Notes: generated by a model from the sequence alone, not told the origin. DNA of 64,000 nt from an uncultured Spirochaetales bacterium (GCA_964577375.1 CAZNYW010000017.1:887-64886); one strand, 5' to 3'. Positions 1-14,335 are shown, counted from the first letter of the stretch. Program-made: numbers and translations.

Positions 1-1259
1 ACGCCGACATTCTCGAGAGCCCGGTCGTCGTGGTCGAAGGGAGCTCACGCGTAACCGACATCCTCGAGGTATTGAGCGGGCGGGTCAAAAAGAACGAGCT
101 GATATCCAACACCATGTTCGACCTTCTGTTCTGCGAGGGCTGCATTGCCGGCCCGATGATGCCGAACGATCTCACCTTCTACGAACGCAAAAAGTACATC
201 ATCGATTACATGAAGAAGCGGCCACTCGTCGATGACATGGACGAGTGGGTGCGCCTGCACAACGAGTATCTTTCCATCGACCTCGGCAAGAAATTCTGTC
301 CGGCGATTCCTCAGGAAGTCGAGGTGCCGGAGTCGGAAATCAAGCGGATACTCGCGCTTACCGGGAAGCTGAAGCCGGAGGATGAGCTGAACTGCCGGGC
401 GTGCGGTTATTCCTCCTGCAGGGACAAGGCTGTAGCGGTCTACCGCGGCATCGCGGAAGTCGAGATGTGTCTGCCCTACCTGATTTCGAAGCTTGAGGTG
501 ACGATCACGGATCTGAAGGACAACCAGCTCAAGCTCATTCAAGCAGAGAAGCTCGCGTCGATGGGGCAGATGGCTGCAGGCATTGCGCACGAGATCAACA
601 ATCCGCTCGGCGTGGTACTGATGTACGCGCATCTCCTGAAGGATGCGGTCGACCTGCACGAGGAAAGCTCTTCCGACGTCTCGCGCATCATTCACGAAGC
701 GGAGCGGGCGCGGCAGATCGTTCGCGGGATCCTCAACTTCGCGCGCAAGGAGCAGCTCGTGCGCGAACCGACCAACATCAACGCCCTGCTGAGGCGGTCG
801 GCCGAATCCTTCGGTGCGCGGGCGGCGGAGATCGACTTCCGTTTCGAGCTCGACGACGATCTCGCGCAGCACGCGGTGGATCCCGATCAGCTTCGGCAGG
901 TGTTCGACAACATCATTTCGAACGCGGTCGAAGCAACCTCGGGCCGCGGACTCATCGAGATTCGAAGTGAAGAGAGCGTCGGCGGCTTTCACGTCGTGAT
1001 CGGCGATTCCGGTCCCGGTATCGCCGCCGATGTACTGCCGAAACTGTTCACTCCGTTTTACACCACGAAACCTCCCGGAAAGGGGACGGGCCTGGGGCTC
1101 GCGGTGTGTTATGGAATCGTGAAAATGCACGGAGGGACGATTCAGGCAGGCAACAGGCCGGAGGGAGGCGCGTCCTTCGACATCTTCATCAAGGATCCGG
1201 AAAAAGCGACACCGGATGACCGGCCGTCTTCCACGACGAAAACTGCGGTTTCGGGGTAA
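1..1259 (+). CDS. Sensor histidine kinase, 5' end outside the window; Cys-rich Fe-S / [FeFe]-hydrogenase-like sensory module fused to HisKA + HATPase_c
   Basis: The frame is open from nt 3, with no stop upstream of the listed GTG at 30, so the gene is cut by the window edge. FCEGC (nt 132-143) and CxxCx4Cx16C (nt 393-470, RnfB-type putative Fe-S motif) come first. They are followed by H-box AHEINNPL, N-box NIISNAVEA and G-boxes DSGPGI / GTGLGLAV. Confidence 0.8.
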   Translation, partial: ADILESPVVVVEGSSRVTDILEVLSGRVKKNELISNTMFDLLFCEGCIAGPMMPNDLTFYERKKYIIDYMKKRPLVDDMDEWVRLHNEYLSIDLGKKFCPAIPQEVEVPESEIKRILALTGKLKPEDELNCRACGYSSCRDKAVAVYRGIAEVEMCLPYLISKLEVTITDLKDNQLKLIQAEKLASMGQMAAGIAHEINNPLGVVLMYAHLLKDAVDLHEESSSDVSRIIHEAERARQIVRGILNFARKEQLVREPTNINALLRRSAESFGARAAEIDFRFELDDDLAQHAVDPDQLRQVFDNIISNAVEATSGRGLIEIRSEESVGGFHVVIGDSGPGIAADVLPKLFTPFYTTKPPGKGTGLGLAVCYGIVKMHGGTIQAGNRPEGGASFDIFIKDPEKATPDDRPSSTTKTAVSG

Positions 1260-1289
1260 CGCTTCCATGTCGGGATAGTGCGGGTGACG

Positions 1290-2768
1290 ATGCAGAGCGA
1301 TCCGGTGAAACCCGATTCAGAAACAATGTCAGTCCTCGTGGTTGACGACGAAGATGGCATGCGCGAAGGAATGCGCAGAATCCTCGGACGAGTCGGCTAC
1401 CACGTCGCCGTTGCCGACGGCGGGGTCGAGGCGATCCGGATGATCGATTCCGGACAGTACGACCTTGCTCTCATCGATCTGCGGATGCCGGAGATCGACG
1501 GATTTGCAGTCACCGACTACATTGCTCGTCGGCCCGGCAACAAAACAATCGTGGTCATTGTATCCGCTCTTGCGACGGTCGAGGCCGCCGTCGAAACGAC
1601 GAGGAAAGGGGCCTTCGATTTCCTGGTGAAACCGTTTGCACCGGCGGATCTGCTTTCGGTTGTCGAACGGGCAGGGCGTCAGTGTCGCCTTCTCCAGGAG
1701 CATGAAAAGTACCTGGTCGAGCTCGACGGGGAGAGAAGCCTGTCGCGCTCACTCATCAACTCCATGCGAGAGGGCGTGATCGTGTTCAACCTGCGTCAGG
1801 AGGTGGTTCTTCTCAACCCGCGGGCTGAGTTCTACCTCGGCACGCGATATCGGTCCGGCATGACCTCCGGCGACCTCGGTTTCGATCCAGGGTTTCCCGA
1901 CATGGTTCGCGGCGTCCTTTCCGGTGACTCCGGCGAAAAGCTGCTCGATCAGGAGATCGGGGAGCAGCGCGTTCGGACACGGATTACTCCCTACGTCCGC
2001 GGCCAGGAGGTCGGCGGCGCCATTGTTCTTCTTCACGATTTTACCGAGGAATGGCGCGCCGAGCAGGACAAGAACCGGTTTGTATCGATGGTGGCCCACG
2101 AGCTGCGCGGTCCGCTTGCGGCGATTCTGAACTACCTCAACCTGATCCTCGATCACTCGGTCGACGACGAACCGGAACGGGTTCGCGAGCTTCTCGAGCG
2201 CAGCAGGAAGCGCGGAGAGGCGCTTCTCGAGCTCGTCGGCGACCTTCTGTTTCTGAACAAACGCAATGCAGGCAAAGCAGAAAAGTCACTCGAAATACTC
2301 GATCTTTCGGAAGTGCTCACGGATGAGGTTGCGTTTGTCGAAGGCCACGCCCAGCGGGCAAACGTTACTGTACGATACGCGGCTCAGGAGGAAAGCTTTC
2401 CGTTCCTCGCAGACCGCGGCGATCTGGATCGCATATTCCTCAACCTGATGTTCAACGGCATAAAGTACAACCGGCCGGGCGGTTCGCTTTCGATAACGAT
2501 CCGGCGGACCGACGACGGACACTGGTTCGAAGTATCGTTCCGTGACACGGGAATCGGAATGACCGACGAAGAGATGAAAAATCTCTTCCAGGATTTCTTT
2601 CGCGTGCTCAACAGCAAGACAAAATCGATACCCGGAACCGGCCTCGGGCTGTCGACCGCAAAGAGAGTACTCTCCGAATACAACGGGCGGATCACCGTCG
2701 AGTCAAAACCCGATGAGGGCTCGACCTTCACGGTGCTGCTGCCGACGAGGGATTCTCTCAATGGCTGA
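1290..2768 (+). CDS. Hybrid sensor: response-regulator receiver + PAS + HisKA/HATPase_c histidine kinase
   Basis: Receiver signature VLVVDDEDG...LALIDLRMPEIDGF...LVKPF. PAS-like SLINSMREGVIVFN. H-box VAHELRGPL. N/G boxes NLMFNGIKYN, DTGIGM, GTGLGLS. Start is uncertain (GTG 1278, ATG 1290 or ATG 1326). Confidence 0.85.
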   Translation: MQSDPVKPDSETMSVLVVDDEDGMREGMRRILGRVGYHVAVADGGVEAIRMIDSGQYDLALIDLRMPEIDGFAVTDYIARRPGNKTIVVIVSALATVEAAVETTRKGAFDFLVKPFAPADLLSVVERAGRQCRLLQEHEKYLVELDGERSLSRSLINSMREGVIVFNLRQEVVLLNPRAEFYLGTRYRSGMTSGDLGFDPGFPDMVRGVLSGDSGEKLLDQEIGEQRVRTRITPYVRGQEVGGAIVLLHDFTEEWRAEQDKNRFVSMVAHELRGPLAAILNYLNLILDHSVDDEPERVRELLERSRKRGEALLELVGDLLFLNKRNAGKAEKSLEILDLSEVLTDEVAFVEGHAQRANVTVRYAAQEESFPFLADRGDLDRIFLNLMFNGIKYNRPGGSLSITIRRTDDGHWFEVSFRDTGIGMTDEEMKNLFQDFFRVLNSKTKSIPGTGLGLSTAKRVLSEYNGRITVESKPDEGSTFTVLLPTRDSLNG

Positions 2769-5175
2769 TCGGGGAGAGAATCCGGGTTCGCCGCAGAGCG
2801 AGTTCATGCGGCTTCTTTCTCACCAGATGAAGGCTCCTGTGCACGCGGTCCAGGCGCTGCTCCAGTCCATCTTCGACGCTCACAGTCAGGAGGTCCCTGC
2901 GTCGGTGAAGGATGCTCTCGAGCGCGCAATCTCCCGTGCCGGGGAAGCGGGTCGTATCGTCGACGACCTGCTCGAGTATCAGTCCTACGAGAGCGGCAGG
3001 AAGAAGGATCACCGGGATTTTGATGTCGTCGGTCTGGTGTCCGACCTTGGTCTCCGGTTTTCTCTCGGCGCGGCAGCGAAGGAGGTTAGCATCGATGTCG
3101 CGCTTCCCGAGAACCTGGCGGTCTTCGTTACCGGCGTGAGAACGGGAGTCGAGCACGCAATTCGGAACCTCATCGACAATGCCGTCAAGTATTCACCGCC
3201 TCTCGGCCGGGTGGAGATCGCGGTCGTGCTCGACGAATCGGAAAAGCGTGTACGAATCTCAGTGAGCGATGCCGGCGCCGGAATCCCGAAGACGGAGATC
3301 GAGCAGCTGTTCACGCCGTTCTTCCGCTCGAAGTCGCACGTGGCGAACACAGGCGGGACAGGCCTCGGCCTTGCGCTGACGGCGAGAATTGTCGAGGCGC
3401 ACAACGGAACGGTCCAGGTATCGTCGGAGGAGGGGAAGGGGACTACCTTCACGGTCACGCTTCCGGCTGAAAGGATAGAGCGGCTGCCTGACCGCCGTGT
3501 GCGTCGACGCAGAGTGGTCATCGTCGGCGGGGTGACATCCGGACCGAAGGCCGCGTCGAGGCTTCGTCGCCTTTCCGAAGATCTCGATATCACGATCGTG
3601 GAGCGCAACGAATTCCTTTCCTATTCGGGCTGCCAGCTTCCCTTCTTCATCCGCGATTCGATCGCGCACGATAGACTCCCTTCTCAGGCCGAGCGTCCTG
3701 CAGTCTCCTCTCACGGGACTCGTACCGCGCACTTCTTTGATGCCATGAAGAACATCACAGTGCTGAATCTAACCTCTGCCGATGAGATCGACCGTAAATC
3801 GAAAAGCCTTCGTGTGAAGCGGAGGAAGGATGGGTCGATTTTCCACGTTCCGTATGACGTTCTGATTCTCGCGACGGGCTCGGTTCCGGTCGTGCCGTCG
3901 GTTCCCGGCGGCGCGGAGGACCTCGTGTTCCCGCTGCACAGCCTCGAGGATGCGAAACGCATCACCGAGCGGCTCGGACGTGAGAACGCGCAGGACGTTA
4001 TCATCGTTGGCGGCGGACTCATCGGCGTGTCGGTCATAGAGGCTTTGGTGGCAACAGGGGCGCGGGTCACGCTGGTCGAGCGTGAATTGAACATCCTCAG
4101 CACATATTTCGATCCCGATTTTGCCGGAAAGATCGAGAACGAGCTCACGCGAAAGGGCGTGAAGGTCGCCACCGGTACTGCGATCACGTCGGTGTCACCG
4201 GTTGAAGGCGGTGTCGTCGCCCATTCGCCGGACCGTACATTCAGAGGTGATTTCGTCATCCTCAGCAGCGGCATGCGTCCGAACACTGATCTCGCCCGCG
4301 CAGCCGGGCTTGCTCTCGGGGAGACCGGGGGAATACAGGTCGACGAAGAGTTGCGCACGAGCGATCCGGACATCTTTGCGGTGGGAGACTGCGCGGAAAC
4401 GCGTCACCTGCTTACGGGACGCCACGAGTACTGGCCGCTCGGTGCCATTTCGATGAAGATGGGGCACATAGCAGCCGATGTCGTGGCCGGCAAGCGCGCC
4501 GTCTACCCCGGGTCGCTCGGCTCGGTTCTTCTCGGCTGCGTAGACCAGCAGTTCGGTCGAACCGGAGTCACCTCCGCGAGTGCGAGGTCGGCCGGGTTCG
4601 ACCCTGTCTCTTTCGTCCTCGCGGGGCCGGAGAGGCCGGGCTACGCTGCAGCGTCGACCGACATCTTCCTCAAAGTCATTGCCGATCGCCCGACACGGCG
4701 CATCATCGGCGTACAGGCTTTCGGCACCGGCGACGTCGGATCGAAGGTCTCCCTCTTTGCCACGGCAATTGCGAACGGGGTGACCACCGAGGGGATGTTT
4801 GTGCTCGATCTCGGTCACGCGCCGGAGTTCAACCATCCCATCGACATCGTCCAGGCCGCCTGCATGATGCTGAACAACAAGATGGACGGCCTCATCGAGA
4901 CGATTTCGGTTTCCGAGTTCGAGCGCGGCCGCGGCGGCCTTACCGCGGCGGCCATCGTCACGCCCGACCTGTCGTTACGGTATCTCATACCGGGGAGCGT
5001 CGAGATCACGCCGGAAAATCTGCGAAGGGAACACCTCCCCTTCGGGGAGCAGGAGCAGGTAATGCTCTACAGCCGGACATCAATGGAAGCCTACCAGGCG
5101 TATCGGTACCTCGTGCAGCGCGGGTATTCCGGCGTTCGCGTTCTCGAGGGTGGTTCTCTCTTCTGGTCGGAATAG
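2761..5175 (+). CDS. Histidine kinase fused to a CoA-disulfide-reductase/NADH-oxidase-type FAD oxidoreductase and a C-terminal rhodanese-like domain
   Basis: H-box LLSHQMKAP and G-boxes DAGAGI / GTGLGLAL. Then GxGxxG VVIVGGVTSGPKAA, redox Cys motif SYSGCQLPF (Cys at nt 3631-3633), a second dinucleotide fold IIVGGGLIGVS and AVGDCA. The C-terminal rhodanese-like fold is ...VMLYSRTSMEAY...VLEGG. ATG 2761 overlaps the upstream stop (2768). Confidence 0.8.
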   Translation: MADRGENPGSPQSEFMRLLSHQMKAPVHAVQALLQSIFDAHSQEVPASVKDALERAISRAGEAGRIVDDLLEYQSYESGRKKDHRDFDVVGLVSDLGLRFSLGAAAKEVSIDVALPENLAVFVTGVRTGVEHAIRNLIDNAVKYSPPLGRVEIAVVLDESEKRVRISVSDAGAGIPKTEIEQLFTPFFRSKSHVANTGGTGLGLALTARIVEAHNGTVQVSSEEGKGTTFTVTLPAERIERLPDRRVRRRRVVIVGGVTSGPKAASRLRRLSEDLDITIVERNEFLSYSGCQLPFFIRDSIAHDRLPSQAERPAVSSHGTRTAHFFDAMKNITVLNLTSADEIDRKSKSLRVKRRKDGSIFHVPYDVLILATGSVPVVPSVPGGAEDLVFPLHSLEDAKRITERLGRENAQDVIIVGGGLIGVSVIEALVATGARVTLVERELNILSTYFDPDFAGKIENELTRKGVKVATGTAITSVSPVEGGVVAHSPDRTFRGDFVILSSGMRPNTDLARAAGLALGETGGIQVDEELRTSDPDIFAVGDCAETRHLLTGRHEYWPLGAISMKMGHIAADVVAGKRAVYPGSLGSVLLGCVDQQFGRTGVTSASARSAGFDPVSFVLAGPERPGYAAASTDIFLKVIADRPTRRIIGVQAFGTGDVGSKVSLFATAIANGVTTEGMFVLDLGHAPEFNHPIDIVQAACMMLNNKMDGLIETISVSEFERGRGGLTAAAIVTPDLSLRYLIPGSVEITPENLRREHLPFGEQEQVMLYSRTSMEAYQAYRYLVQRGYSGVRVLEGGSLFWSE

Positions 5176-5240
5176 CGCCAGGTGGCAGTGCCGTGCTGGT
5201 GTCGCGTCAGATCATTAACTGTTCTCTATTGCATTAGTGC

Positions 5241-5269
5241 TTGCAAGTCCGCGAATCTTGGTGTACGAT
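5241..5269 (+). promoter_or_regulatory. Candidate sigma70-type promoter for the hox operon (TTGCAA-N17-TACGAT)
   Basis: Lies in the only AT-rich patch of the 185-nt gap between the kinase gene and hoxF. Hexamers read directly from the sequence. Confidence 0.4.
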
Positions 5270-5307
5270 AATAATATACGGATAAAATTTTCCGCATATG
5301 TCTCACC

Positions 5308-5332
5308 CCATCCGGCAGCAACAGCCGGATGG
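5308..5332 (+). promoter_or_regulatory. Perfect 9-bp inverted repeat CCATCCGGC-N7-GCCGGATGG in the hoxF leader
   Basis: Arms 5308-5316 and 5324-5332 are exact reverse complements. The repeat sits between the candidate promoter and the GGAGG Shine-Dalgarno (5349-5353). Function unknown (operator or RNA hairpin). Confidence 0.5.
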
Positions 5333-5360
5333 AGCAAACCAGTGCCACGGAGGTTGAGAC

Positions 5361-7172
5361 ATGGGGAGTCCCATCCAGCGGAGTGCGGAAACAGTCTGCG
5401 CTCAGCGCCACAACGACCGAACCCGCCTTATGGACATCGTCAGAGCTCTCCACGCCGAACACGGCTTCATGGACGACGACGCTATCGAGACCGTCGCCGC
5501 CCGGCTGGGCGTTCATCGCGTGGAAGTCGAGAGCATGCTGACGTTCTACTCGTTCTTCTCGCGGAAAAAACGGGGAAAACTTGTCATTCGGCTCTGCAAC
5601 GACGTCATCGACCGGATGAACGGGGCCGACCTGGTTGCCGATGCATTCCGGGAGCAGCTGGGCATCGATTTCGGGGAGACCACCCCCGACGGCAGAATCA
5701 CGCTCGAGCACACGCCGTGCATCGGGATGAGCGATCAGGCTCCTGCCGCTCTGGTGAACGACGAGGTGGTGACCTATCTTTCGACCGACCGCGTCAAGGA
5801 GATCGTAGCGATTCTCCGGCACACGGATGATGCGCACAAACTGGTCCATCGGCTCGGCGACGGGCAGAATGCGCACGATCTCATTCGCTCCATGGTGCAC
5901 AACAACGTTCGTCGCAGAGGTGAGGTCATATTCGGCTCGCACGAGGCAAACAACACCGGCCTCGCGAAGGCACTCGTGATGAGCCCGGTGGAAGTCATAA
6001 ACGAAATCAAGACCGCCCGCCTGCGGGGTCGCGGTGGGGCCGGCTTCCCGACGGGCCTCAAGTGGGAGTTCACACGCGGCGCCGAAGGCGAAAAGAAATA
6101 CGTCATCTGCAACAGCGACGAGGGCGAGCCGGGTACGTTCAAGGATCGAGTGCTTCTTACCGAGTTTCCCGATCGGATACTCGAAGGGATGACGATCGCC
6201 GGCTACGCGATAGGGGCGCAGATGGGACTGCTCTACCTTCGCGGTGAGTATGCATACCTGTATCGATACCTGGCAACGGTGCTCGAGGAGAGGCGGTCCA
6301 ACGGCCTCCTCGGCACGAACATCATGGGAAAGGATTTCTCCTTTGACGTTCGAATCGAGCTGGGGGCGGGAGCCTACATATGTGGCGAGGAGACCGCGCT
6401 GATAAGCTCGCTCGAAGGCACTGCCGGCCTGCCCAAGACGAAACCGCCGTTCCCGGCGCAGGAGGGATTTCTCAGCCGACCGACCGCCGTAAACAATGTT
6501 GAGACACTCTGCGTCGTTCCCGACATTCTCGACCGCGGCGCCGCCTGGTTCGCCGGGATCGGATCGAAGAACAGCTCCGGAACGAAGCTCCTGAGCGTAG
6601 CGGGAGATTGCGCGCGGCCCGGTATCTACGAGTATCCCTTCGGTGTGACCGTCGCCCAGATCCTCAAGGATACCGGGGCCGAGGATACCTACGCGGTACA
6701 GGTCGGCGGCGCATCGGGCCAGATGATCAACGAGACGGACTTCCGGCGCTCGATCTCTTACGAGGATCTTGCAACCGGCGGTTCCGTCATGATCTTCGAT
6801 CGTACCCGTGACATCCTCGACGCGGTGAAGAGCTTCATGGAGTTCTTCGTCGACGAGAACTGCGGATACTGCACGCCGTGCAGGGCGGGAAACCGCCTGA
6901 TGCTCGCCATCCTCGACCGCATCATCAAGGGCAATGGCGCGCCGGAAGACCTTGACACGTTGAAACGCATCGGCAACTCGGTGAAGATTGCCAGTCGCTG
7001 CGGGCTCGGGCAGACCTCGCCCAATCCCATCCTCAGTTCGATCGAAAAATTCGCTCCGGCTTACGAGAAGCTGATGAAGAAGAGCGGGGCGCTGCGGGCC
7101 TCTTTCGACATCGAGAGCGCACTGGCAGAGTCGTCGAAGATATCAGGGCGCCGTTCGACGGTCCTGTCCTGA
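5361..7172 (+). CDS. hoxF: NAD-reducing [NiFe] hydrogenase diaphorase subunit HoxF (NuoE-like domain + NuoF-like FMN/NADH/[4Fe-4S] module)
   Basis: GRGGAGFPTGLKW (FMN/NADH site), SRCGLGQT and CGYCTPCR cluster motifs. N-terminal thioredoxin-like NuoE-type region. GGAGG lies 7 nt upstream of the ATG. Confidence 0.9.
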   Translation: MGSPIQRSAETVCAQRHNDRTRLMDIVRALHAEHGFMDDDAIETVAARLGVHRVEVESMLTFYSFFSRKKRGKLVIRLCNDVIDRMNGADLVADAFREQLGIDFGETTPDGRITLEHTPCIGMSDQAPAALVNDEVVTYLSTDRVKEIVAILRHTDDAHKLVHRLGDGQNAHDLIRSMVHNNVRRRGEVIFGSHEANNTGLAKALVMSPVEVINEIKTARLRGRGGAGFPTGLKWEFTRGAEGEKKYVICNSDEGEPGTFKDRVLLTEFPDRILEGMTIAGYAIGAQMGLLYLRGEYAYLYRYLATVLEERRSNGLLGTNIMGKDFSFDVRIELGAGAYICGEETALISSLEGTAGLPKTKPPFPAQEGFLSRPTAVNNVETLCVVPDILDRGAAWFAGIGSKNSSGTKLLSVAGDCARPGIYEYPFGVTVAQILKDTGAEDTYAVQVGGASGQMINETDFRRSISYEDLATGGSVMIFDRTRDILDAVKSFMEFFVDENCGYCTPCRAGNRLMLAILDRIIKGNGAPEDLDTLKRIGNSVKIASRCGLGQTSPNPILSSIEKFAPAYEKLMKKSGALRASFDIESALAESSKISGRRSTVLS

Positions 7173-7192
7173 ACGAATAGAGGGAGACACGT

Positions 7193-7906
7193 ATGGCGGA
7201 CACCTTTACGTTCAATATTGACGGCACGGAAGTCACGGGCGCTCCGGGTCAGACCATAATGGAAGCGGCGGACGAGGCGGGCGTCTACATTCCGCGCCTC
7301 TGCACGATGAAGGGACTCAAGACCCTCGGAAGCTGCCGGGTTTGTACGGTCCTTGTCGACGGCCGGCCACAGGCCGCCTGCACGCAGCCGGCTGCTGCGG
7401 GAATCAACGTCGACAACGATACCGAGAAGCTCAACGCAATTCGACGCGACATCATCGAGTTGCTCTTCGTGGAGGGCAATCACTTCTGCATGTTCTGCGA
7501 GAAAAGCGGCAACTGCGAGCTGCAGGCGGCCGCGTATCGGCTCGGGATAGCGGCGCCCGAACTGCCCTATCTCTATCCCAAACGAGAAATCGACGCGACT
7601 CACCCGGAGGTTCTGATAGAACGGAACCGGTGCATTCTGTGCGGCCGGTGCGTCACCTCCTCCGAATACGCCGACGGTAAACATGTGTTCGATTTTGTCG
7701 GCAGAGGTTCCGATCGCAGGATTGCGGTCGATTCCCGGGGCGACCTCTCTGACACCAGTCTGAAGTCGACCGACAGGGCGGTGGAGGTGTGTCCCGTCGG
7801 CGCAATTCTCAAGAAGGGAACGGCGTACGCGACGCCGATCGGACGGCGGACATACGATGCGCAGCCGATCGGGGCCGACATCGAGGAGCGAGGAGGACGA
7901 ACATGA
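7193..7906 (+). CDS. hoxU: NAD-reducing hydrogenase diaphorase Fe-S subunit HoxU (NuoG N-terminal-like)
   Basis: 2Fe-2S ferredoxin motif CTMKGLKTLGSCRVC...C, His/Cys cluster HFCMFCEKSGNCELQ and 4Fe-4S motif CILCGRCV. The stop overlaps the hoxY ATG (ATGA at 7903-7906). Confidence 0.9.
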   Translation: MADTFTFNIDGTEVTGAPGQTIMEAADEAGVYIPRLCTMKGLKTLGSCRVCTVLVDGRPQAACTQPAAAGINVDNDTEKLNAIRRDIIELLFVEGNHFCMFCEKSGNCELQAAAYRLGIAAPELPYLYPKREIDATHPEVLIERNRCILCGRCVTSSEYADGKHVFDFVGRGSDRRIAVDSRGDLSDTSLKSTDRAVEVCPVGAILKKGTAYATPIGRRTYDAQPIGADIEERGGRT

Positions 7907-8448
7907 GCAAACCGAAGGTGGCGACTGCTTCGCTCGCCGGCTGTTTTGGCTGTCACATGTCCCTGCTCGACATAGACGAACGGATACTGCAGCTAATCGA
8001 CCTGGTTGATTTCGACAAATCGCCCATCGACGACATCAAGGAGTTCACCGGCCGCTGCCAGATCGGCCTTATCGAGGGTGGCTGCACCACCGACGAGAAT
8101 GTCCGTGTGCTCAAAAGCTTTCGTGAGCACTGCGACATCCTCATCTCGGTCGGGGACTGTGCTACCATGGGCGGTTTGCCTGCGCTTCGCAACACAGTTC
8201 CGCTGCGGGAATGTCTGGAAGAGGCCTATTTGAACGGTCCGACGGTCTACAACCCTGAGAAGAAGATACCGGGAGATCCGGAAATCCCGTTGATGCTCGA
8301 CAGGGTCTATCCCTGTCACGAAGTGGTAAAGATCGATTATTTCCTCCCCGGCTGCCCTCCCTCGGCTGACACGCTGTGGGAAGCGTTGACCGCACTTCTC
8401 AGTGATAAACCCGTGAAGCTGCCCTACTCACTGCTCAAGTACGATTGA
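7903..8448 (+). CDS. hoxY: [NiFe] hydrogenase small subunit, group-3 type (HoxY)
   Basis: Internal ATG of listed ORF 7789-8448. MSKPKVATASLAGCFGCHMS, GDCATMGG and PGCPP motifs typical of short cytoplasmic small subunits. Confidence 0.9.
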   Translation: MSKPKVATASLAGCFGCHMSLLDIDERILQLIDLVDFDKSPIDDIKEFTGRCQIGLIEGGCTTDENVRVLKSFREHCDILISVGDCATMGGLPALRNTVPLRECLEEAYLNGPTVYNPEKKIPGDPEIPLMLDRVYPCHEVVKIDYFLPGCPPSADTLWEALTALLSDKPVKLPYSLLKYD

Positions 8449-8467
8449 GCGGAAGGAGAAACAGACC

Positions 8468-9913
8468 ATGGCCCAGGAAGGTACTGCTTACAAGCGCGTC
8501 GTTATCGAACCGGTCACGAGGATCGAAGGACACGGCAAGGTCTCGCTTCTGCTCGACGAGTCGGGCGGCATACATCAGGCCCGATTCCACGTTGTCGAGT
8601 TCCGCGGATTCGAACGCTTCGTGCAGGGGCGCCCATACTGGGAAGCTCCCGTGCTGGTGCAGCGACTCTGTGGAATCTGCCCGGTGAGTCACCACCTCGC
8701 CGCGGCGAAAGCGATGGACCGAATTGTGGGCGCGGACAAGCTCACACCGACGGCGGAAAAGATGCGACGGCTGATGCACTACGGTCAGTTCTTTCAGTCG
8801 CATTCGCTGCACTTCTTCCACCTCGTTTCACCCGACCTCCTGTTCGGGTTCGAAGCGGATCCCGCGATCCGCAACGTCATCGGGGTGGCGAGAAAGTATC
8901 CCGACCTCGCCGTCCAGGGCGTCATGATGCGCAAGTTCGGACAGGAGATCATCAAGGCGACCGCCGGAAAGAAGATACACGGCACCGGGGCAATCCCGGG
9001 AGGCATAAACAAGAATCTTTCGATAGAGGAACGGGACTTTCTGTTGAAGGATATCGACCAGATGATCGAATGGTCGCGCGGCGCCGTGAAAATTGCCCGC
9101 GACTACACTGCCGAGAACGCGTCGCGGCTCGGCGAGTTCGCTGCCTTCGACTCGAATCACCTGTCTATAGTCCGTCCCGACGGGGCGCTCGAGATATACG
9201 ACGGTGAGCTGCGCGCGATCAGCGCCGACGGAAAGACGATCTTTGATCACGTGGACTGTCAGACCTTCCCGGAGTACCTTGCCGAAGAGGTTCGCGACTG
9301 GTCCTACATGAAGTTTCCGTTCATCCGGTCGCTCGGACCCGAGAAAGGGTGGTATCGCGTCGGGCCGCTTGCACGCGTCAACAACTGCAGCTTCATCGAC
9401 ACGCCCGAGGCCGAGGCTGCCAGAAAGGAATTCTACAAAACGCTCGGAGAAGGGCCATGCAACCTCACGATGGCTTATCACTGGGCGCGAATGATCGAGA
9501 CGCTGCACGCCGCTGAAAAGATTCGCGAACTGCTCAACGACAGCGACCTGCAGGGCAAGGACCTGACGGTGAAAGGCAAGCGGCGCAAAGTCGGTATCGG
9601 CGTGATCGAAGCGCCGCGCGGGACGCTCTTTCACTATTACGAGGTGGACAAGAACGACCAGATCGTGAGAGCGAATCTGATTGTCTCGACGACGAACAAC
9701 AACGAACCGATCAACAGGGCGGTCGCCGACGTGGCCGAGAAGGACCTCGCAGGCAAGGAGCTGACCGAAGGGCTTCTGAACCATATCGAGGTAGCGATTC
9801 GCGCATACGACCCCTGCCTTTCGTGTGCTACGCACGCGATGGGGCAGATGCCGCTTCTGGTGGAGCTCTACGATTCGAACAACCAGCTTCTCGACAGGAA
9901 GACCAAGGATTGA
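8468..9913 (+). CDS. hoxH: [NiFe] hydrogenase large subunit (HoxH)
   Basis: RIEGHG, N-terminal RLCGICPVSH and C-terminal DPCLSCATH Ni-Fe ligand motifs. A 24-aa C-terminal extension after the His matches a protease-processed precursor. Confidence 0.95.
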   Translation: MAQEGTAYKRVVIEPVTRIEGHGKVSLLLDESGGIHQARFHVVEFRGFERFVQGRPYWEAPVLVQRLCGICPVSHHLAAAKAMDRIVGADKLTPTAEKMRRLMHYGQFFQSHSLHFFHLVSPDLLFGFEADPAIRNVIGVARKYPDLAVQGVMMRKFGQEIIKATAGKKIHGTGAIPGGINKNLSIEERDFLLKDIDQMIEWSRGAVKIARDYTAENASRLGEFAAFDSNHLSIVRPDGALEIYDGELRAISADGKTIFDHVDCQTFPEYLAEEVRDWSYMKFPFIRSLGPEKGWYRVGPLARVNNCSFIDTPEAEAARKEFYKTLGEGPCNLTMAYHWARMIETLHAAEKIRELLNDSDLQGKDLTVKGKRRKVGIGVIEAPRGTLFHYYEVDKNDQIVRANLIVSTTNNNEPINRAVADVAEKDLAGKELTEGLLNHIEVAIRAYDPCLSCATHAMGQMPLLVELYDSNNQLLDRKTKD

Positions 9914-10383
9914 CCGAAACTGCGGAGCAGACAGTTCTGGTACTCTGCTACGGCAATCCGGCGCGCGAGGACGACGGGCTCGGGCCGGCGGTCGCCGAGA
10001 TGCTGGCGTCGTCTCCCATGGCGGGGGCGAGAGTCGAATCCAACTATCAGCTTCTGGTCGAGGATGCGGTAGCCGTCTCGGAGGCGTCACTCGTCGTCTT
10101 TGTGGACGCTGCCGCGGCGGGACCTGAACCCTTCGAGTTTCGGACAATCGAACCGGGCGAGACCGGCGGGTACATGGCGCATAGCATTGGGCCGGCGCAG
10201 CTTCTCGGGCTTGCCCGCGAGTTGTTCGGCAGGTCGCCCGTGGCATACATGCTTGCGATCCGCGGGTACTCGTTCGAGATGTTCCACGAGGGGCTCTCGC
10301 GCCGGGCGTCCGAAAACCTCTCCCGCGCGACAGAATACCTGCGCGAGTTTGTGCGTGCGAGGGTTGTCGAGGAGGTAACATGA
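9910..10383 (+). CDS. hoxW: Hydrogenase maturation endopeptidase (HoxW/HycI family)
   Basis: VLVLCYGNPAREDDGLGPAV signature and position directly after hoxH. Start taken as TTG 9910, overlapping the hoxH stop; the start is uncertain. Confidence 0.8.
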   Translation: MTETAEQTVLVLCYGNPAREDDGLGPAVAEMLASSPMAGARVESNYQLLVEDAVAVSEASLVVFVDAAAAGPEPFEFRTIEPGETGGYMAHSIGPAQLLGLARELFGRSPVAYMLAIRGYSFEMFHEGLSRRASENLSRATEYLREFVRARVVEEVT

Positions 10384-10393
10384 GGAGGCAGCG

Positions 10394-10771
10394 ATGAGGG
10401 AGGGCAAGTTCGTTGTTCTGGCGATCGATGACGACGAGGACGTCTTGTATGCTCTTCGGATAGTGCTGGAAAAGAACGGCTACGTCATGTCCGAGGCCCA
10501 TTCGGCCGAAACTGGCGTTCGCTCTTTCAAGAATGAACGACCGGACTTCATCATAGTCGATCTGATGATGGAATCGATCGACGCGGGCAAGAACCTGGTG
10601 AAGGAACTGAAGTTCCTGGGCAATGAGGCTCCGGTGTACATGCTCTCTTCGGTCGGCGACGAGCTGTCGGGAAATGTCGACGTTCGGGAGCTCGGCCTTC
10701 AGGGAGTGTTCCAGAAGCCGATTAACAACGATGTTCTCCTCAAGACCCTGGAGCGGAAGCTTAAGAAGTAG
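10394..10771 (+). CDS. Single-domain response-regulator receiver (CheY-like), last gene of the hox operon
   Basis: VVLAIDDDED, phospho-acceptor context FIIVDLMM, and MLSS / FQKP conserved positions. 125 aa with no output domain. Confidence 0.85.
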   Translation: MREGKFVVLAIDDDEDVLYALRIVLEKNGYVMSEAHSAETGVRSFKNERPDFIIVDLMMESIDAGKNLVKELKFLGNEAPVYMLSSVGDELSGNVDVRELGLQGVFQKPINNDVLLKTLERKLKK

Positions 10772-11498
10772 CGATCAGCGCTTCGAGTGCCGGTGCGAGG
10801 AATGCTGCGAAACGTCCCTCGACGAGTTCCTCGGGCTTTCCAATTTCGTCTTCGATTTCGGGCGTGTAGGGGATCTTTCCGAGCAGCGTCAATCCTCGGT
10901 CCGGCGGCAGAGGTGTCGGAGTGGTCTGGTCGTCGCGTACCATGTTGAGGATGCATCCGGCCGGATGCACGCGCCCGGCGTTCAGCACCTCCGCAAGCCG
11001 CTCCATTATGCGAAGAGACAGGGTGGATGCGCTCGAGACCAGCGCCACCCGGACTCGCGGAACGTACCGTGAAACGTCGAGAATCGCTTCGCCGATTCCC
11101 GGCGGCATGTCGATGACGAGCAGATCCAGAGAGCCCCATACGACCACTGCGAGCAGTTCCCGGATAGCGTCGGTAACCGCGTCCCCACGAAGTGCGACCC
11201 CTCGCTCGCCGGTAAACGGGGTTATTCCCATGTAGCGCAGCCCGAAGGCGGCTTCGAACGGCAGGATGCCGCCCTCTTCCTGCGGAAGGTGGGGATCGAT
11301 ACCGAGGATGAGATGGGCAGATGCACCGTGGAAATCGAGATCGAGCAGGCCCACTTTGCGGCCCGCCTTCGCGAGCAGCAGCGCAGCAGTTGCCGAGCAG
11401 CAGCTCTTGCCGACGCCGCCTTTTCCGCTGGCAAAGGCGAGAATCGTCGTTACCGATTGCAGCCGGTGCTGGATGATGGAAACCCGGGGGTCGCTCAT
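10761..11498 (-). CDS. Mrp/MinD-family P-loop ATPase (ApbC/NBP35-like), probable [NiFe]-hydrogenase Ni-insertion partner of HypA
   Basis: Deviant Walker A ASGKGGVGKS. Internal ATG 11498 of listed ORF 10761-11576 forms ATGA with the hypA stop. The 3' end overlaps the convergent receiver gene by 11 nt. Confidence 0.75.
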   Translation of the reverse strand: MSDPRVSIIQHRLQSVTTILAFASGKGGVGKSCCSATAALLLAKAGRKVGLLDLDFHGASAHLILGIDPHLPQEEGGILPFEAAFGLRYMGITPFTGERGVALRGDAVTDAIRELLAVVVWGSLDLLVIDMPPGIGEAILDVSRYVPRVRVALVSSASTLSLRIMERLAEVLNAGRVHPAGCILNMVRDDQTTPTPLPPDRGLTLLGKIPYTPEIEDEIGKPEELVEGRFAAFLAPALEALIATS

Positions 11499-11923
11499 TG
11501 AGCCTCTTGCCTCGGTTGCGGCTCGTTGAGCTCTATCGACGCCAGCGTGATTCCCCGCCCCTTTGTGACCTGGCAATCGGCACTACTGCACGAGGGGCAG
11601 TGCACGAAGGCGTGCGCGGCCTCGGGAAGAAAATGGATAGCTTCCCGGTGTTCATCGGTGAGGCCGTCCACTTGGTCGAATCCCCACTGATGGCCGCAGA
11701 CATTGCACCTGAAGCGAACGGGCTCGACAATGATGCGGACGGCATCGCGATCGTGCGGAACGTCGTCGAGCATGGTGGCAAGACCGTCCTCGAAAATCCC
11801 GCGGTCGATGTTCTGGAGCTCTCCGAAGACGAGGTTTACGGCGTGAAGTGTCGCGCCGGAATGGCCCGCCATTTCGTTTCTGATCGTCGCCGCGACGGAT
11901 TCGGCAAGTGCCCATTCGTGCAT
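11495..11923 (-). CDS. hypA: Hydrogenase nickel incorporation protein HypA
   Basis: Canonical N-terminus MHEWALAES (Ni-binding MHE) and zinc motifs CNVC...CPSC. Internal ATG of listed ORF 11495-11995. Confidence 0.9.
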   Translation of the reverse strand: MHEWALAESVAATIRNEMAGHSGATLHAVNLVFGELQNIDRGIFEDGLATMLDDVPHDRDAVRIIVEPVRFRCNVCGHQWGFDQVDGLTDEHREAIHFLPEAAHAFVHCPSCSSADCQVTKGRGITLASIELNEPQPRQEAQ

Positions 11924-12013
11924 GGAGCTATAGTAGCTCCTATTGCAGACAAGGGAAAGTGCGGATAGCATTGAATCGGCCAACAGTAGCATCATCTTAG
12001 CGGAAGGTTTCCC

Positions 12014-14335
12014 GTGAGCGAGGCTGACGAAATCCGGAGAGTACGAATCACCTATCGAGGAATTGTTCAGGGAGTCGGGTTCCGGCCCTCGGTCTATCGC
12101 TGCGCAGTCGCGTGCGGTCTCGACGGTTTCGTGCAGAACCGGCGGTCCGAGGTCGTCGCCGAGCTTCAGGGAGCTGCCGTTTCGATCGCCAGGTTCGAGA
12201 AGATGATGTCGCAGAACCTGCCTGCTCCTGCGAGAATCGAATCGACGAAAACAGATCAGATAGAGCTGCGAAAGAACTCCGGTTTTCGGATCGCCGAGAG
12301 CAGCAACTCCAGTTACATTTTCCCGCCGATTCCTCCGGACATCGCGATGTGCGACGCCTGCCGGCGAGAGCTTCTCGATCCGTCGAACAGGCGGTATCTG
12401 TATCCGTTCATAACATGTACCGAATGCGGTCCACGCTATTCAATTGTCGAAGATACGCCGTTCGATCGTGAGAGAACGTCCATGGCGGATTTCTCGCAGT
12501 GCGGCGCGTGCCGGGCCGAATACTCAGAACCTGCCGACCGTCGATTTCATTCGCAGACCAACGCGTGCGCGGAGTGCGGTCCGGTTCTGCACCTGGTGAC
12601 CGCCGCCGGACGCGCCGTGTCCGGTGATCCTCTTTCGGCGGCGGTGGAGGCGCTGGCAGGCGGCAAGGTGGTCGCTCTGCAGGGTATCGGCGGCTTTCAT
12701 CTCGCTGCCGATCCACGGTTTCCCGAGGCGGTCGCGCGTCTTCGGCTGGTGAAGAGCCGCCGGGCGAAGCCGTTTGCGCTCATGGTGCGCGACGTCGCCG
12801 AAGCGGCCGAGCTGTGCGAGCTCTCGTCGTCGGACCGGAAACTCCTCACTTCGCCGGCGAGCCCGATCATCATTCTGCCTGCGAAGGACCCCTCACCAGC
12901 GCACCTGGCCTCCGTTTCGGATCTGGGTACGCTCGGCATCATGGTACCGTACAGCCCGCTGCATTACCTTCTTTTCTTCCACCCCGGACTGCAGATTCCC
13001 TACCGGCACCTGATCATGACCAGCGGCAACCTCGGCGAGGAGCCGATCATCATCGACGAGGCGGAGGCTCGGGCGAAGCTTTCGGAGTCTGCGGACCTCT
13101 TCCTGTGCCACAATCGCCGCATACTTCTTTCGACCGACGATTCGGTCATGAGGCCTTTGCCCCCACGTGTCGGGGGCCACCATCTGGTTCGCCGTTCGCG
13201 TGGATTCGTGCCGCAGACGATCCGGGTGGCAGGGCGGGTTGCCGTACCCACGCTCGCAGCCGGAAGCGACCTCAAGAGTGCGCCCGCGCTCGGTCGGGAA
13301 CGATCGGTTCTTGTCGCGCCTCATCTCGGTGACCTTTCGAACCCTGAGAGCCGCGCTGCCTACGTCCGGACGGTTGATCAGATGCAGAGGCTGTTTGGAG
13401 GCGCGCCCTCCCGGGTGGTTTTCGATCTGCATCCTGGCTACTTCAGCTCCGGGTGGGCGATGGAGTCCTCGATTGTGCAGAAGGTGGCGGTGCAGCATCA
13501 TTACGCGCACGTGCTGTCGGTGATGGCCGAACATGGCCTCGAAGAATCGATCGGCATAGCGTTCGACGGCACCGGTTTCGGAAGCGACGGAGCAATCTGG
13601 GGCGGCGAGTTCCTGCACGCAACCCGAATGCAATTCCGGCGGCTGGGCAGCCTGCGAAGTTTTGCATTGCCGGGGGGTGAGGCTGCTATCCGCAAACCGG
13701 CGAGGATCGCCTTCTCGCTTCTGCACGGCCGCGGTGAGGTCGGCTCAGCAGACGGAACGATTGACAGGATAGGTGAAGCTGAAGCGGAGCTCCTTTCGCA
13801 GATGATCGAACAGTCACTAAACAGTCCGCTCACCTCGTCTGCGGGCAGACTGTTCGATGCGGCGTCTGCTCTTCTGGGGCTGGTCGACGAGGTAAGCTAC
13901 GAGGGTGAGGGAGCGATGAAGCTCGAAAGCGCCGCCGCCGGTGCGGCGGGCAGAGAGCGGAACGTTGACGGTCTTTTCGAAGATCTCGTACCGCTCGAGC
14001 CGGATTCAGGCGCGTCCGAGCCGTTTCTCTTCGACTTCAGACCGCTCTTTCGAGAGCTGGTGCGTAGCCGTTCATCTGAACGCGATTCCCTTTCGCTCCT
14101 GTTTCACGAGGCGATGGCGAGCGCAATTGTCAGAGGCGCGTCCGTCCTGCGGGAACGCACCGGACTCAGTACGCTCTGCCTCGCGGGCGGTGTCTTTCAG
14201 AATGCTTTGCTGTGGGAGCTTATACTGCCGGCGCTCGACCGGCAGAATTTCACGGTCTGCAGCAACCTCGCGGTCCCTCCCGGTGACGGCGGACTTGCCG
14301 TCGGACAGGCGTGGTATGCAGGCGACGGAGGTTGA
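12014..14335 (+). CDS. hypF: Carbamoyltransferase HypF
   Basis: Acylphosphatase-like N-terminus (GIVQGVGFRPSVYR), paired CxxC zinc fingers (CDACRREL, CTECGPRYS, CGACRAEY, CAECGP), then YrdC-like and Kae1-like regions. GTG start preceded by GGAAGG. Confidence 0.95.
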   Translation: MSEADEIRRVRITYRGIVQGVGFRPSVYRCAVACGLDGFVQNRRSEVVAELQGAAVSIARFEKMMSQNLPAPARIESTKTDQIELRKNSGFRIAESSNSSYIFPPIPPDIAMCDACRRELLDPSNRRYLYPFITCTECGPRYSIVEDTPFDRERTSMADFSQCGACRAEYSEPADRRFHSQTNACAECGPVLHLVTAAGRAVSGDPLSAAVEALAGGKVVALQGIGGFHLAADPRFPEAVARLRLVKSRRAKPFALMVRDVAEAAELCELSSSDRKLLTSPASPIIILPAKDPSPAHLASVSDLGTLGIMVPYSPLHYLLFFHPGLQIPYRHLIMTSGNLGEEPIIIDEAEARAKLSESADLFLCHNRRILLSTDDSVMRPLPPRVGGHHLVRRSRGFVPQTIRVAGRVAVPTLAAGSDLKSAPALGRERSVLVAPHLGDLSNPESRAAYVRTVDQMQRLFGGAPSRVVFDLHPGYFSSGWAMESSIVQKVAVQHHYAHVLSVMAEHGLEESIGIAFDGTGFGSDGAIWGGEFLHATRMQFRRLGSLRSFALPGGEAAIRKPARIAFSLLHGRGEVGSADGTIDRIGEAEAELLSQMIEQSLNSPLTSSAGRLFDAASALLGLVDEVSYEGEGAMKLESAAAGAAGRERNVDGLFEDLVPLEPDSGASEPFLFDFRPLFRELVRSRSSERDSLSLLFHEAMASAIVRGASVLRERTGLSTLCLAGGVFQNALLWELILPALDRQNFTVCSNLAVPPGDGGLAVGQAWYAGDGG

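Follow-up and report, generated by a model that had tools for sequence, protein, structure and literature searches.

What does a histidine kinase sense when the domain fused to it looks like a disulfide reductase? This question is raised by an open reading frame at 2761..5175 in a 64,000-nucleotide stretch of DNA from an uncultured Spirochaetales bacterium (GCA_964577375.1, CAZNYW010000017.1:887-64886), hereafter the window. All coordinates are counted from the first letter of the window, and all features described below lie on the + strand. The frame encodes a histidine kinase–coenzyme A-disulfide reductase–rhodanese (HK–CoADR–RHD) fusion protein, referred to as the target, and lies upstream of the genes for an NAD-linked Hox hydrogenase. 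The answer we favor, on which our confidence is evenly divided, is that the target is a cytoplasmic flavin/thiol redox sensor, probably of NADH/NAD+, which descends from a former CoADR-RHD/Npsr (NADH-dependent persulfide reductase) enzyme and feeds a multikinase relay for Hox. The architecture of the protein, the conservation patterns of its family and its gene linkage were observed directly.

A kinase core is joined to a CoADR-RHD-type flavoprotein

Translation of the window showed that 2761..5175 is a single stop-free frame of 804 amino acids (aa) with the domain order HisKA–HATPase_c–CoADR-type flavoprotein–rhodanese fold. The ATG at 2761 is preceded by GAGGGA, and it overlaps the stop of the upstream gene within ATGGCTGA. 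A start at ATG 2713, giving an 820-aa form, was rejected, as it has no ribosome-binding site and both the homologs and the database copy start at 2761; this copy (P0001) is identical to the target protein and is the 804-aa form. Pfam matches were numbered on the 820-aa form, from which 16 is subtracted to reach the 804-aa numbering used elsewhere in the text. The results showed HisKA at 28-95 (32.8 bits, gathering cut-off 26.9), HATPase_c at 142-253 (E-value 1e-32), Pyr_redox_2 at 267-564 (3e-57; Pyr_redox was also found) and Pyr_redox_dim at 612-707 (1.4e-11). Rhodanese (PF00581) matched at 759-819 with 21.7 bits, just below its gathering cut-off of 22.2, and the same match is present in most homologs of the target.

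The target was modelled by AlphaFold2 from a 55-sequence family alignment, with a predicted local distance difference test score (pLDDT) of 85.8 and a predicted template modelling score of 0.74. When the model was compared with solved structures by Foldseek, its C-terminal 555 residues matched A. fulgidus Npsr (AfNpsr, 6pfz) with a target-normalised template modelling score of 0.94, and the matches also included B. anthracis CoADR-RHD (BaCoADR-RHD), S. loihica Npsr (SlNpsr) and E. faecalis CoAPR (EfCoAPR). The sequence search gave the same picture, with 6pfz as the best solved-structure match (3e-89) and SlNpsr, BaCoADR-RHD and EfCoAPR behind it. For the C-terminal two thirds of the protein, the best NCBIfam models were CoA-disulfide reductases, both below their cut-offs (TIGR03385, 331.4 versus 578.8 bits; NF007123, 289.2 versus 458 bits). 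The two stretches modelled with the lowest confidence were residues 686-693 and an enlarged loop at 301-318, which is located at the site where AfNpsr has a lid over CoA.

An earlier note on this DNA had proposed a histidine kinase fused to a CoADR-RHD/Npsr-type protein, and Pfam, the best NCBIfam models, the structure-sequence alignment and Foldseek all bore this out. It had also described the kinase as lacking an N-terminal sensor or transmembrane segment. The model agreed with that description, since His21 stands only 20 residues from the start and the first modelled helix begins at residue 11. On its other side, the ATP-binding domain leads directly to the first strand of the FAD (flavin adenine dinucleotide) domain through an Arg-rich linker (3484..3510, aa 242-250, LPDRRVRRR).

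The flavoprotein half keeps its dinucleotide-fold motifs and redox cysteine

The CoADR-type flavoprotein extends over 3511..4884 (aa 251-708), with the GxGxxG motif for FAD at 256-261, that for NADH at 417-422 and a GD motif at 542-543. A single Cys next to the flavin, Cys291 (TGC, 3631-3633), aligned with the redox Cys (Cys42/43) of 6pfz, 3ntd and 3icr, and it is kept in 109 of the 110 family members. Glu440 (4078-4080) aligned with the NADH-selecting E183 of AfNpsr, a residue which binds the NADH ribose and excludes NADPH (PMC7969121).

Conservation was examined in three aligned groups, namely a near clade of 72 fused proteins (40-100% identical to the target), a distant clade of 38 fused proteins (32-37% identical) and 53 stand-alone CoADR-RHD genes taken from the genome scan. 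Positions conserved in at least 85% of the 53 stand-alone enzymes were defined as enzyme signature positions. Both GxGxxG folds, K263 and R270 of helix α1, Cys291 and Pro294 were kept in all three groups, as were Glu440, the G542-D543-C544 motif and many glycines. From the offset given by the alignment endpoints, we take Cys43, Arg22 and Tyr419 of S. aureus CoADR to be the equivalents of Cys291, Arg270 and position 686, respectively. These results suggested that the flavoprotein half retains the parts for FAD and NADH binding and for cycling of Cys291, cofactor binding being predicted from the sequence.

Another position differs between the groups. Cys701 (4861..4863) is Cys in 96% of the near clade, and Ala is found there in 92% of the stand-alone CoADR-RHD enzymes. 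A role of Cys701 as a new disulfide partner of Cys291 was considered and dropped.

Sulfur-relay residues are lost stepwise

The C-terminal domain (4903..5172, aa ~715-804) was modelled as a rhodanese fold with pLDDT of about 83-94 and is degenerate. In the alignment to 6pfz, Ser771 (AGC, 5071-5073) fell on the catalytic rhodanese Cys and Glu776 (5086-5088) on the loop Arg; this Cys is numbered Cys519 in AfNpsr (PMC7969121). Alignment and codons confirmed both the Cys kept at 3631-3633 and the Ser at 5071-5073, as read earlier from the DNA. The Cys-to-Ser change is real in the target, but it is not a private loss, as it marks most of the 72-member near clade. Position 771 is Cys in 100% of the stand-alone enzymes and in 87% of the distant clade, and Ser in 86% of the near clade. 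The loop Arg at position 776 is present in 100% of the stand-alone enzymes, 89% of the distant clade and 47% of the near clade, and is replaced by Glu in the target.

Similar patterns were found at other positions. The DVR…E motif (731/733/737) reads D, R and E in the stand-alone enzymes and in the distant clade, is partly lost in the near clade and has become A731, V733 and L737 in the target; positions 564-565 are A and N in the first two groups, S and T in the near clade, and S and M in the target. The Tyr of the YAPP motif, found in 100% of the 53 stand-alone enzymes, is replaced by His at position 686 (His686, 4816-4818) in the target's own sub-clade (P0001-P0008), which is further changed at His627, Asp322, Glu424 and Gly292. 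A second Hox-linked sub-clade (P0012, P0019, P0028 and others) has kept the Cys and carries Leu in place of the loop Arg. The rhodanese fold is still constrained, with R755, Y778, L784, G797, G798 and W802 conserved.

The features that define CoADR-RHD/Npsr enzymes, namely the rhodanese Cys-x4-Arg loop, the YAPP Tyr and a score above the curated cut-offs, are thus missing from the target. Taken together, the alignment shows a gradient in which the distant fused clade retains all enzyme signatures, whereas the target's clade retains the FAD and NADH motifs and Cys291 and has lost the sulfur-relay parts (rhodanese Cys/Arg, DVR and YAPP Tyr). This clade-wise loss of signature residues strengthened the idea, put forward in the earlier note, that an enzyme has been repurposed as a sensor.

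The kinase half carries a glutamine in its H-box

The kinase half consists of a DHp helical hairpin (2791..2991, aa 11-77; AlphaFold2 helices 11-40 and 47-77) and a CA (ATP-binding) domain (3013..3483, aa ~85-241). The H-box at 2818..2838 reads S20-H21-Q22-M23-K24-A25-P26, in which H21, Q22 and P26 vary little or not at all among family members; the consensus of the family is S-H-Q-(L/M)-K-(S/A)-P. The phospho-acceptor His21 (CAC, 2821-2823) is kept in 109 of 110 homologs, and the boxes of the ATP site are invariant across the family (N box, N140; G1, D170-G172-G174; F box, F187; G2, G199-G201-G203).

At H+1, the acidic residue of HisKA kinases is missing, and Gln is found in 108 of the 110 family members (Gln22 in the target). 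Position H+4 is Ser in 86, Ala in 19 and Thr in 3 of the 110 proteins, and the target has Ala25 there, not Thr or Asn. All 29 H-Q kinases encoded in 1.54 Mb of locus sequence were members of the family, and 27 non-family kinases with an aligned His in the same loci had Glu (20), Asp (6) or Cys (1) at H+1, with no Gln. Both kinases encoded directly upstream of the target in the window have ordinary H-E boxes. Willett and Kirby found that the acidic residue at H+1 is needed for kinase activity and not for phosphatase activity, for which Thr or Asn at H+4 is required; CrdS E372Q and NtrB E140Q were kinase-negative, and these E→Q proteins remained phosphatase-positive (PMC3510030).

The kinase core had been called complete before. 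That description held for His21 and all the ATP-binding boxes, but not for H+1, which is Gln instead of Glu/Asp, nor for H+4, which is Ala instead of Thr/Asn. Because the H-box has Gln in place of the catalytic acid, a phosphatase or phosphotransfer role is possible. By analogy, the autokinase activity of the target may be weak or unusually triggered, or the protein may mainly partner the two canonical upstream kinases in phosphatase or phosphotransfer reactions. At four loci (L003, L004, L091 and L092) no other kinase was found nearby, which argues that the protein must autophosphorylate somehow.

The fusion is rare, old and widely spread

A search of 5.8 billion proteins found at least 110 full-length relatives of ~800 aa, with the same domain string and 32-71% identity to the target. 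Among the names of their sources are Spirochaetia, Chitinispirillaceae/Chitinivibrionales and Hydrogenedentes. When GTDB species genomes were scanned, full-length copies were found in Spirochaetales/Spirochaetota, Pirellulales/Planctomycetota, Verrucomicrobiota, Anaerolineales and Lentisphaerota/Victivallales, and in one metagenome-assembled genome (MAG) labelled Paceibacterota. At 50% identity, the family comprised ~7 full-length representatives among 1.84 billion. With so few representatives in several lineages, the fusion architecture is rare yet old and widely spread. The nearest named relative of the target is a partial Salinispira pacifica protein with 77% identity.

In a neighbour-joining tree of the flavoprotein halves, a crude method, the 72 near-clade proteins formed one monophyletic, long-branched clade. 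The distant-clade modules interleaved with the stand-alone enzymes, a pattern in which this method does not separate repeated fusion or fission from poor resolution. The H-Q H-box common to the family argues for a single origin of the fusion.

Two other sets of fused or adjoining proteins were noticed in the searches. Eight CoADR-RHD-like proteins of 809-866 aa (P0203, P0210, P0211, P0221-P0223, P0225 and P0255) match the flavoprotein half at their N-terminus and carry ~270-330 extra C-terminal residues, a fusion set distinct from that of the target. In Desulfobacterota MAGs (L050, L071, L072, L082 and L087), a kinase-like segment lies directly upstream of, or is fused to, a CoADR-type flavoprotein without a rhodanese domain; the query match ends at ~720, and these may be a separate kinase-flavoprotein pairing.

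The target belongs to a hydrogenase cluster with two further kinases

The target is the third gene of a tight run in the window. The first gene (1..1259) encodes the C-terminal 419 aa of a kinase whose 5' part lies beyond the window edge, with the frame open to base 3; it contains PF04060 FeS, HisKA and HATPase_c domains and the H-box AHEINNP. Full-length homologs of this kinase (604-682 aa; L001, L009, L010 and L093) have the domain order Fer4, Fe_hyd_lg_C, PF04060, HisKA and HATPase_c. Because these homologs carry Fer4 and Fe_hyd_lg_C, the product of 1..1259 was assigned as an [FeFe] Group C1-type, putatively H2-sensing kinase. In HydDB, [FeFe] Group C1 is the class of histidine kinase-linked (putative) sensory hydrogenases (PMC5037454). 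The second gene (1278..2768) encodes a REC–PAS-like–HisKA–HATPase_c protein with the canonical H-box AHELRGP, and its stop overlaps the start of the target.

Between the target and the hox genes lie 185 bp. The first of these is a HoxE/HoxF fusion (5361..7172), which combines a NuoE-like 2Fe-2S domain with a NuoF-like flavin mononucleotide/NADH module. It is followed by HoxU, the 2Fe-2S and 4Fe-4S subunit (7193..7906); HoxY, the small [NiFe] subunit (7903..8448), whose ATG at 7903 was inferred from 181-aa homologs and an upstream GAGGAGG; and HoxH, the large [NiFe] subunit (8468..9913), for which PF27537 HoxH is recorded on homologs. The next frame (9910..10383, 157 aa), with a likely TTG start at 9910 overlapping the hoxH stop, encodes a HoxW-type hydrogenase maturation protease. 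It had no Pfam match at E<=0.01, and its identity was supplied by NCBIfam (TIGR00072, 74.7 bits, cut-off 47.45). The run ends with a REC-only response regulator (10394..10771) with canonical D12-14, D56, S85/86 and K108, which is the likely phosphoryl acceptor of the system, and hyp genes are found downstream of it in the window. Among the cluster genes of the window there was neither a DNA-binding regulator nor any gene of sulfur metabolism.

Gene neighbourhoods of family members were then inspected at about 30 loci. The order [target]–hoxEFUYHW–REC was found in the near clade in the window and at L001/L002, L003, L009, L010, L011 and L093. The two upstream kinases accompany these Hox-linked loci, L003 excepted, and a REC-only gene stands at the end of every Hox-linked cluster. 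In the distant clade, the gene is divergent from hoxEFUYH and REC at L023 and lies between hypA and hypB at L007. The link to hydrogenase suspected from the window is thus conserved in seven near-clade and two distant-clade loci.

The association of the family with NAD(H) complexes reaches beyond hydrogenase. A family member adjoins rnfC/D/E at L012 (2946..6678), and another at L032 (12501..20139) adjoins genes for NuoE, NuoF and molybdopterin formate dehydrogenase together with small HATPase_c, PHP and CBS-HATPase genes. At L014 (8982..12887), the neighbours are cheA-cheR-cheB. In the non-Hox loci L004/5, L091 and L092, a REC-only gene of ~125 aa lies convergent immediately downstream, and PilZ genes adjoin in two of them; overall, of 13 near-clade loci examined, 10 have a REC-only gene beside the kinase. 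None of these partners was seen at L006 or at most of the remaining distant-clade loci.

The region upstream of hoxE contains a conserved AT-rich block

The intergenic region upstream of hoxE (5176..5360) contains an AT-rich block of ~47 nucleotides, GGTGTACGATAATAATATACGGATAAAATTTTCCGCATATGTCTCAC (~5253..5299), which hardly differs between the window, L001 and L011, whereas the flanking HK–CoADR–RHD proteins of these three are only ~70% identical. The block is followed, just before the ribosome-binding site, by a stem CCATCCGGC-N7-GCCGGATGG (~5299..5323). In L001 and L011 the corresponding stretches have other sequences and, as judged by eye, may still pair. The block and the stem are a possible promoter/operator and a candidate hairpin of the 5' untranslated region, respectively. 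No sigma-70 match above threshold was found upstream of hoxE, and a promoter/terminator scan of 1..12100 performed no better than shuffles and gave nothing in the gap before hoxE.

Discussion

The redox-sensor reading can be put as a mechanism, in which cofactor binding, signal identity, the direction of phosphoryl flow and the output are predicted from the sequence, the monomer fold model and gene linkage. The NADH/NAD+ ratio, working against a thiol oxidant, would set the redox state of FAD and Cys291 in an obligate flavoprotein dimer, and the 9-residue linker would relay this state to the CA domain and the DHp bundle. As a result, the target would handle phosphoryl groups differently, either on the REC-only regulator, whose gene closes the hox operon, or on the REC domain of the neighbouring REC-kinase. 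It may work mainly as a phosphatase or phosphotransfer partner under redox control, opposing or complementing the two canonical upstream kinases. It would set the phosphorylation of the REC-only regulator alone or together with the putative H2-sensing kinase and the REC-kinase. In this way, the cluster would match the NAD-linked Hox hydrogenase to the status of H2 as well as of NADH.

Several observations weigh against this proposal. The invariance of Arg270, the presumed equivalent of S. aureus CoADR Arg22, means that CoA may still be bound and that CoA-thiol status, instead of NADH, could be the signal. The H+1 Gln predicts poor autokinase activity, by analogy with CrdS and NtrB (PMC3510030). 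With the sensor on the C-terminal side of the CA domain, the signal would have to enter by an unusual route, and the coupling mechanism is therefore conjecture. The output is a REC-only protein without a DNA-binding domain, so that control of hox transcription is only proposed. Finally, about half of the distant-clade loci have no hydrogenase or NAD-linked neighbour.

A more specific proposal, which we put forward only tentatively, treats the three kinases, the REC-only protein and hoxEFUYHW as one device comparing the substrate and product of the hydrogenase. The [FeFe]-derived kinase would report H2, the HQ-box target would be an NADH/redox-gated phosphatase or phosphotransfer node, and the REC-only protein would control Hox by direct protein contact. 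If so, a bidirectional NAD-linked hydrogenase would for the first time be seen under two-component control, and the target would be the first sensor kinase with a whole disulfide-reductase flavoenzyme as its input.

The target could instead sense oxygen or peroxide, an alternative that we consider unlikely though worth keeping in view. Either O2 or H2O2 would convert Cys291 to a sulfenic acid, which NADH would reduce again through FAD, and the kinase would read this state to shut down or protect the hydrogenase, which is sensitive to O2, in an anaerobe living in mats. After the CoADR-type enzymes, the target is closest in structure and sequence to NADH oxidases and NADH peroxidase, AfNpsr itself has NADH oxidase activity (PMC7969121), and the loss of the sulfur-relay residues with the single Cys kept fits a Cys-SOH centre. 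The family models, however, speak for the CoADR side. The NADH oxidase/peroxidase model NF046103 gave 216.7 bits (cut-off 600), weaker than the CoADR models, of which TIGR03385 scored 331 bits. In addition, the protein is derived from the CoADR-RHD branch and has retained the Lys/Arg of helix α1 that is typical of CoA-binding proteins, and NAD(H) fits the neighbouring Rnf and formate dehydrogenase genes better than O2 does.

Sensing of reactive sulfur (persulfide, polysulfide or CoA-persulfide) seems improbable for the target and is more plausible for the enzyme-like distant clade. Here the Npsr reaction would be performed or sampled, and the state of Cys291, as Cys291–S–S–CoA or as thiol, would report the sulfane-sulfur load. 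The closest solved relatives are persulfide reductases, the distant fused clade retains every catalytic residue including the rhodanese C-x4-R loop, and the CoA-contacting Arg270 is invariant, all of which are consistent with such a signal. Nevertheless, the target is without the rhodanese Cys, the loop Arg, the DVR motif and the YAPP Tyr, turnover of EfCoAPR needs both cysteines (PMC9405070), and the cluster contains no sulfur-metabolism genes.

Equally doubtful is the view that the HQ H-box marks a dead kinase half, so that the protein is a scaffold or phosphatase in a three-kinase cluster, or an NADH-linked accessory of HoxEFU, with no sensing by the flavoprotein. This would agree with the near-universal Gln at H+1 and its absence from the 27 neighbouring kinases, with the kinase-dead, phosphatase-positive E→Q forms of CrdS and NtrB, and with Ala instead of Thr/Asn at H+4 in the target. 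However, His21 and the complete set of ATP-binding boxes stay unchanged across a wide phylogenetic range, which is unexpected for a dead scaffold, and a REC-only gene is also the partner of those members that have no other kinase close by.

That separate kinase and CoADR-RHD genes were joined by a frameshift or sequencing error, a check raised in the earlier note, can be dismissed with near certainty: the junction at 3460-3540 is one open frame with stops in both other frames, and the same architecture recurs in independent assemblies from several phyla, with at least 110 proteins of ~800 aa, and at 29 independent loci.

Among known proteins, the closest to the target are the CoADR-RHD/Npsr/CoAPR enzymes (6PFZ of A. 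fulgidus, 3NTA of S. loihica, 3ICR of B. anthracis and 8A56 of E. faecalis), which share the fold and the domain order of its C-terminal 555 residues, the FAD and NADH dinucleotide folds, the NADH-selecting Glu and the single flavin-adjacent redox Cys. Unlike them, the target has an N-terminal kinase core, is without the rhodanese Cys/Arg, DVR and YAPP Tyr, and falls below every curated CoADR cut-off. With HisKA kinases such as EnvZ, NtrB, HK853 and CrdS it shares the DHp hairpin, the phospho-acceptor His, Pro at H+5 and the N/G1/F/G2 boxes; it differs from them in Gln at H+1, Ser/Ala at H+4, the lack of an N-terminal input domain and a 555-residue domain after the CA domain.

In the flavin-based redox sensors NifL, MmoS and Aer, a small PAS-FAD domain lies N-terminal to the transmitter, and its bound flavin reports cellular redox. 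The concept is alike, whereas the input of the target would be a whole dimeric disulfide reductase with a redox Cys, placed C-terminal to the ATP-binding domain. The H2-sensing regulatory hydrogenase with HoxJ ([NiFe] group 2b) and [FeFe] Group C1 are likewise redox enzyme scaffolds repurposed as kinase input, and a Group C1-type kinase is encoded two genes upstream of the target in the same cluster. In the target, the input would come from a flavoprotein disulfide reductase, and the presumed signal is NAD(H)/thiol and not H2.

In the literature, including the topics of pyridine nucleotide-disulfide oxidoreductase (PNDOR)-kinase-hydrogenase and of Salinispira hydrogenase, no description of a histidine kinase fused to CoADR and rhodanese was found, and no curated NCBIfam family reached its cut-off for the whole target protein. 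The statement that this fusion is not a characterised sensor class therefore stands, and the hydrogenase-regulatory cluster around it is, as far as could be found, apparently undescribed so far. The target would be a two-component transmitter whose input module belongs to a new class.

The family offers a natural H-Q variant of the H-box of HisKA kinases, whose engineered counterparts are kinase-dead, and an NADH-responsive kinase, if true, would be a useful part for synthetic biology. From an enzyme-like clade to a decayed, sensor-like clade, its members form a natural series which suits the study of how an enzyme changes into a receptor. To our knowledge, the signals that control bidirectional Hox hydrogenases outside cyanobacteria are poorly known. 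The conserved cluster, in which Hox is joined by a putative H2 sensor and a proposed redox sensor of flavoenzyme origin, would provide a testable model of how fermenters match H2 production or uptake to their NADH load.

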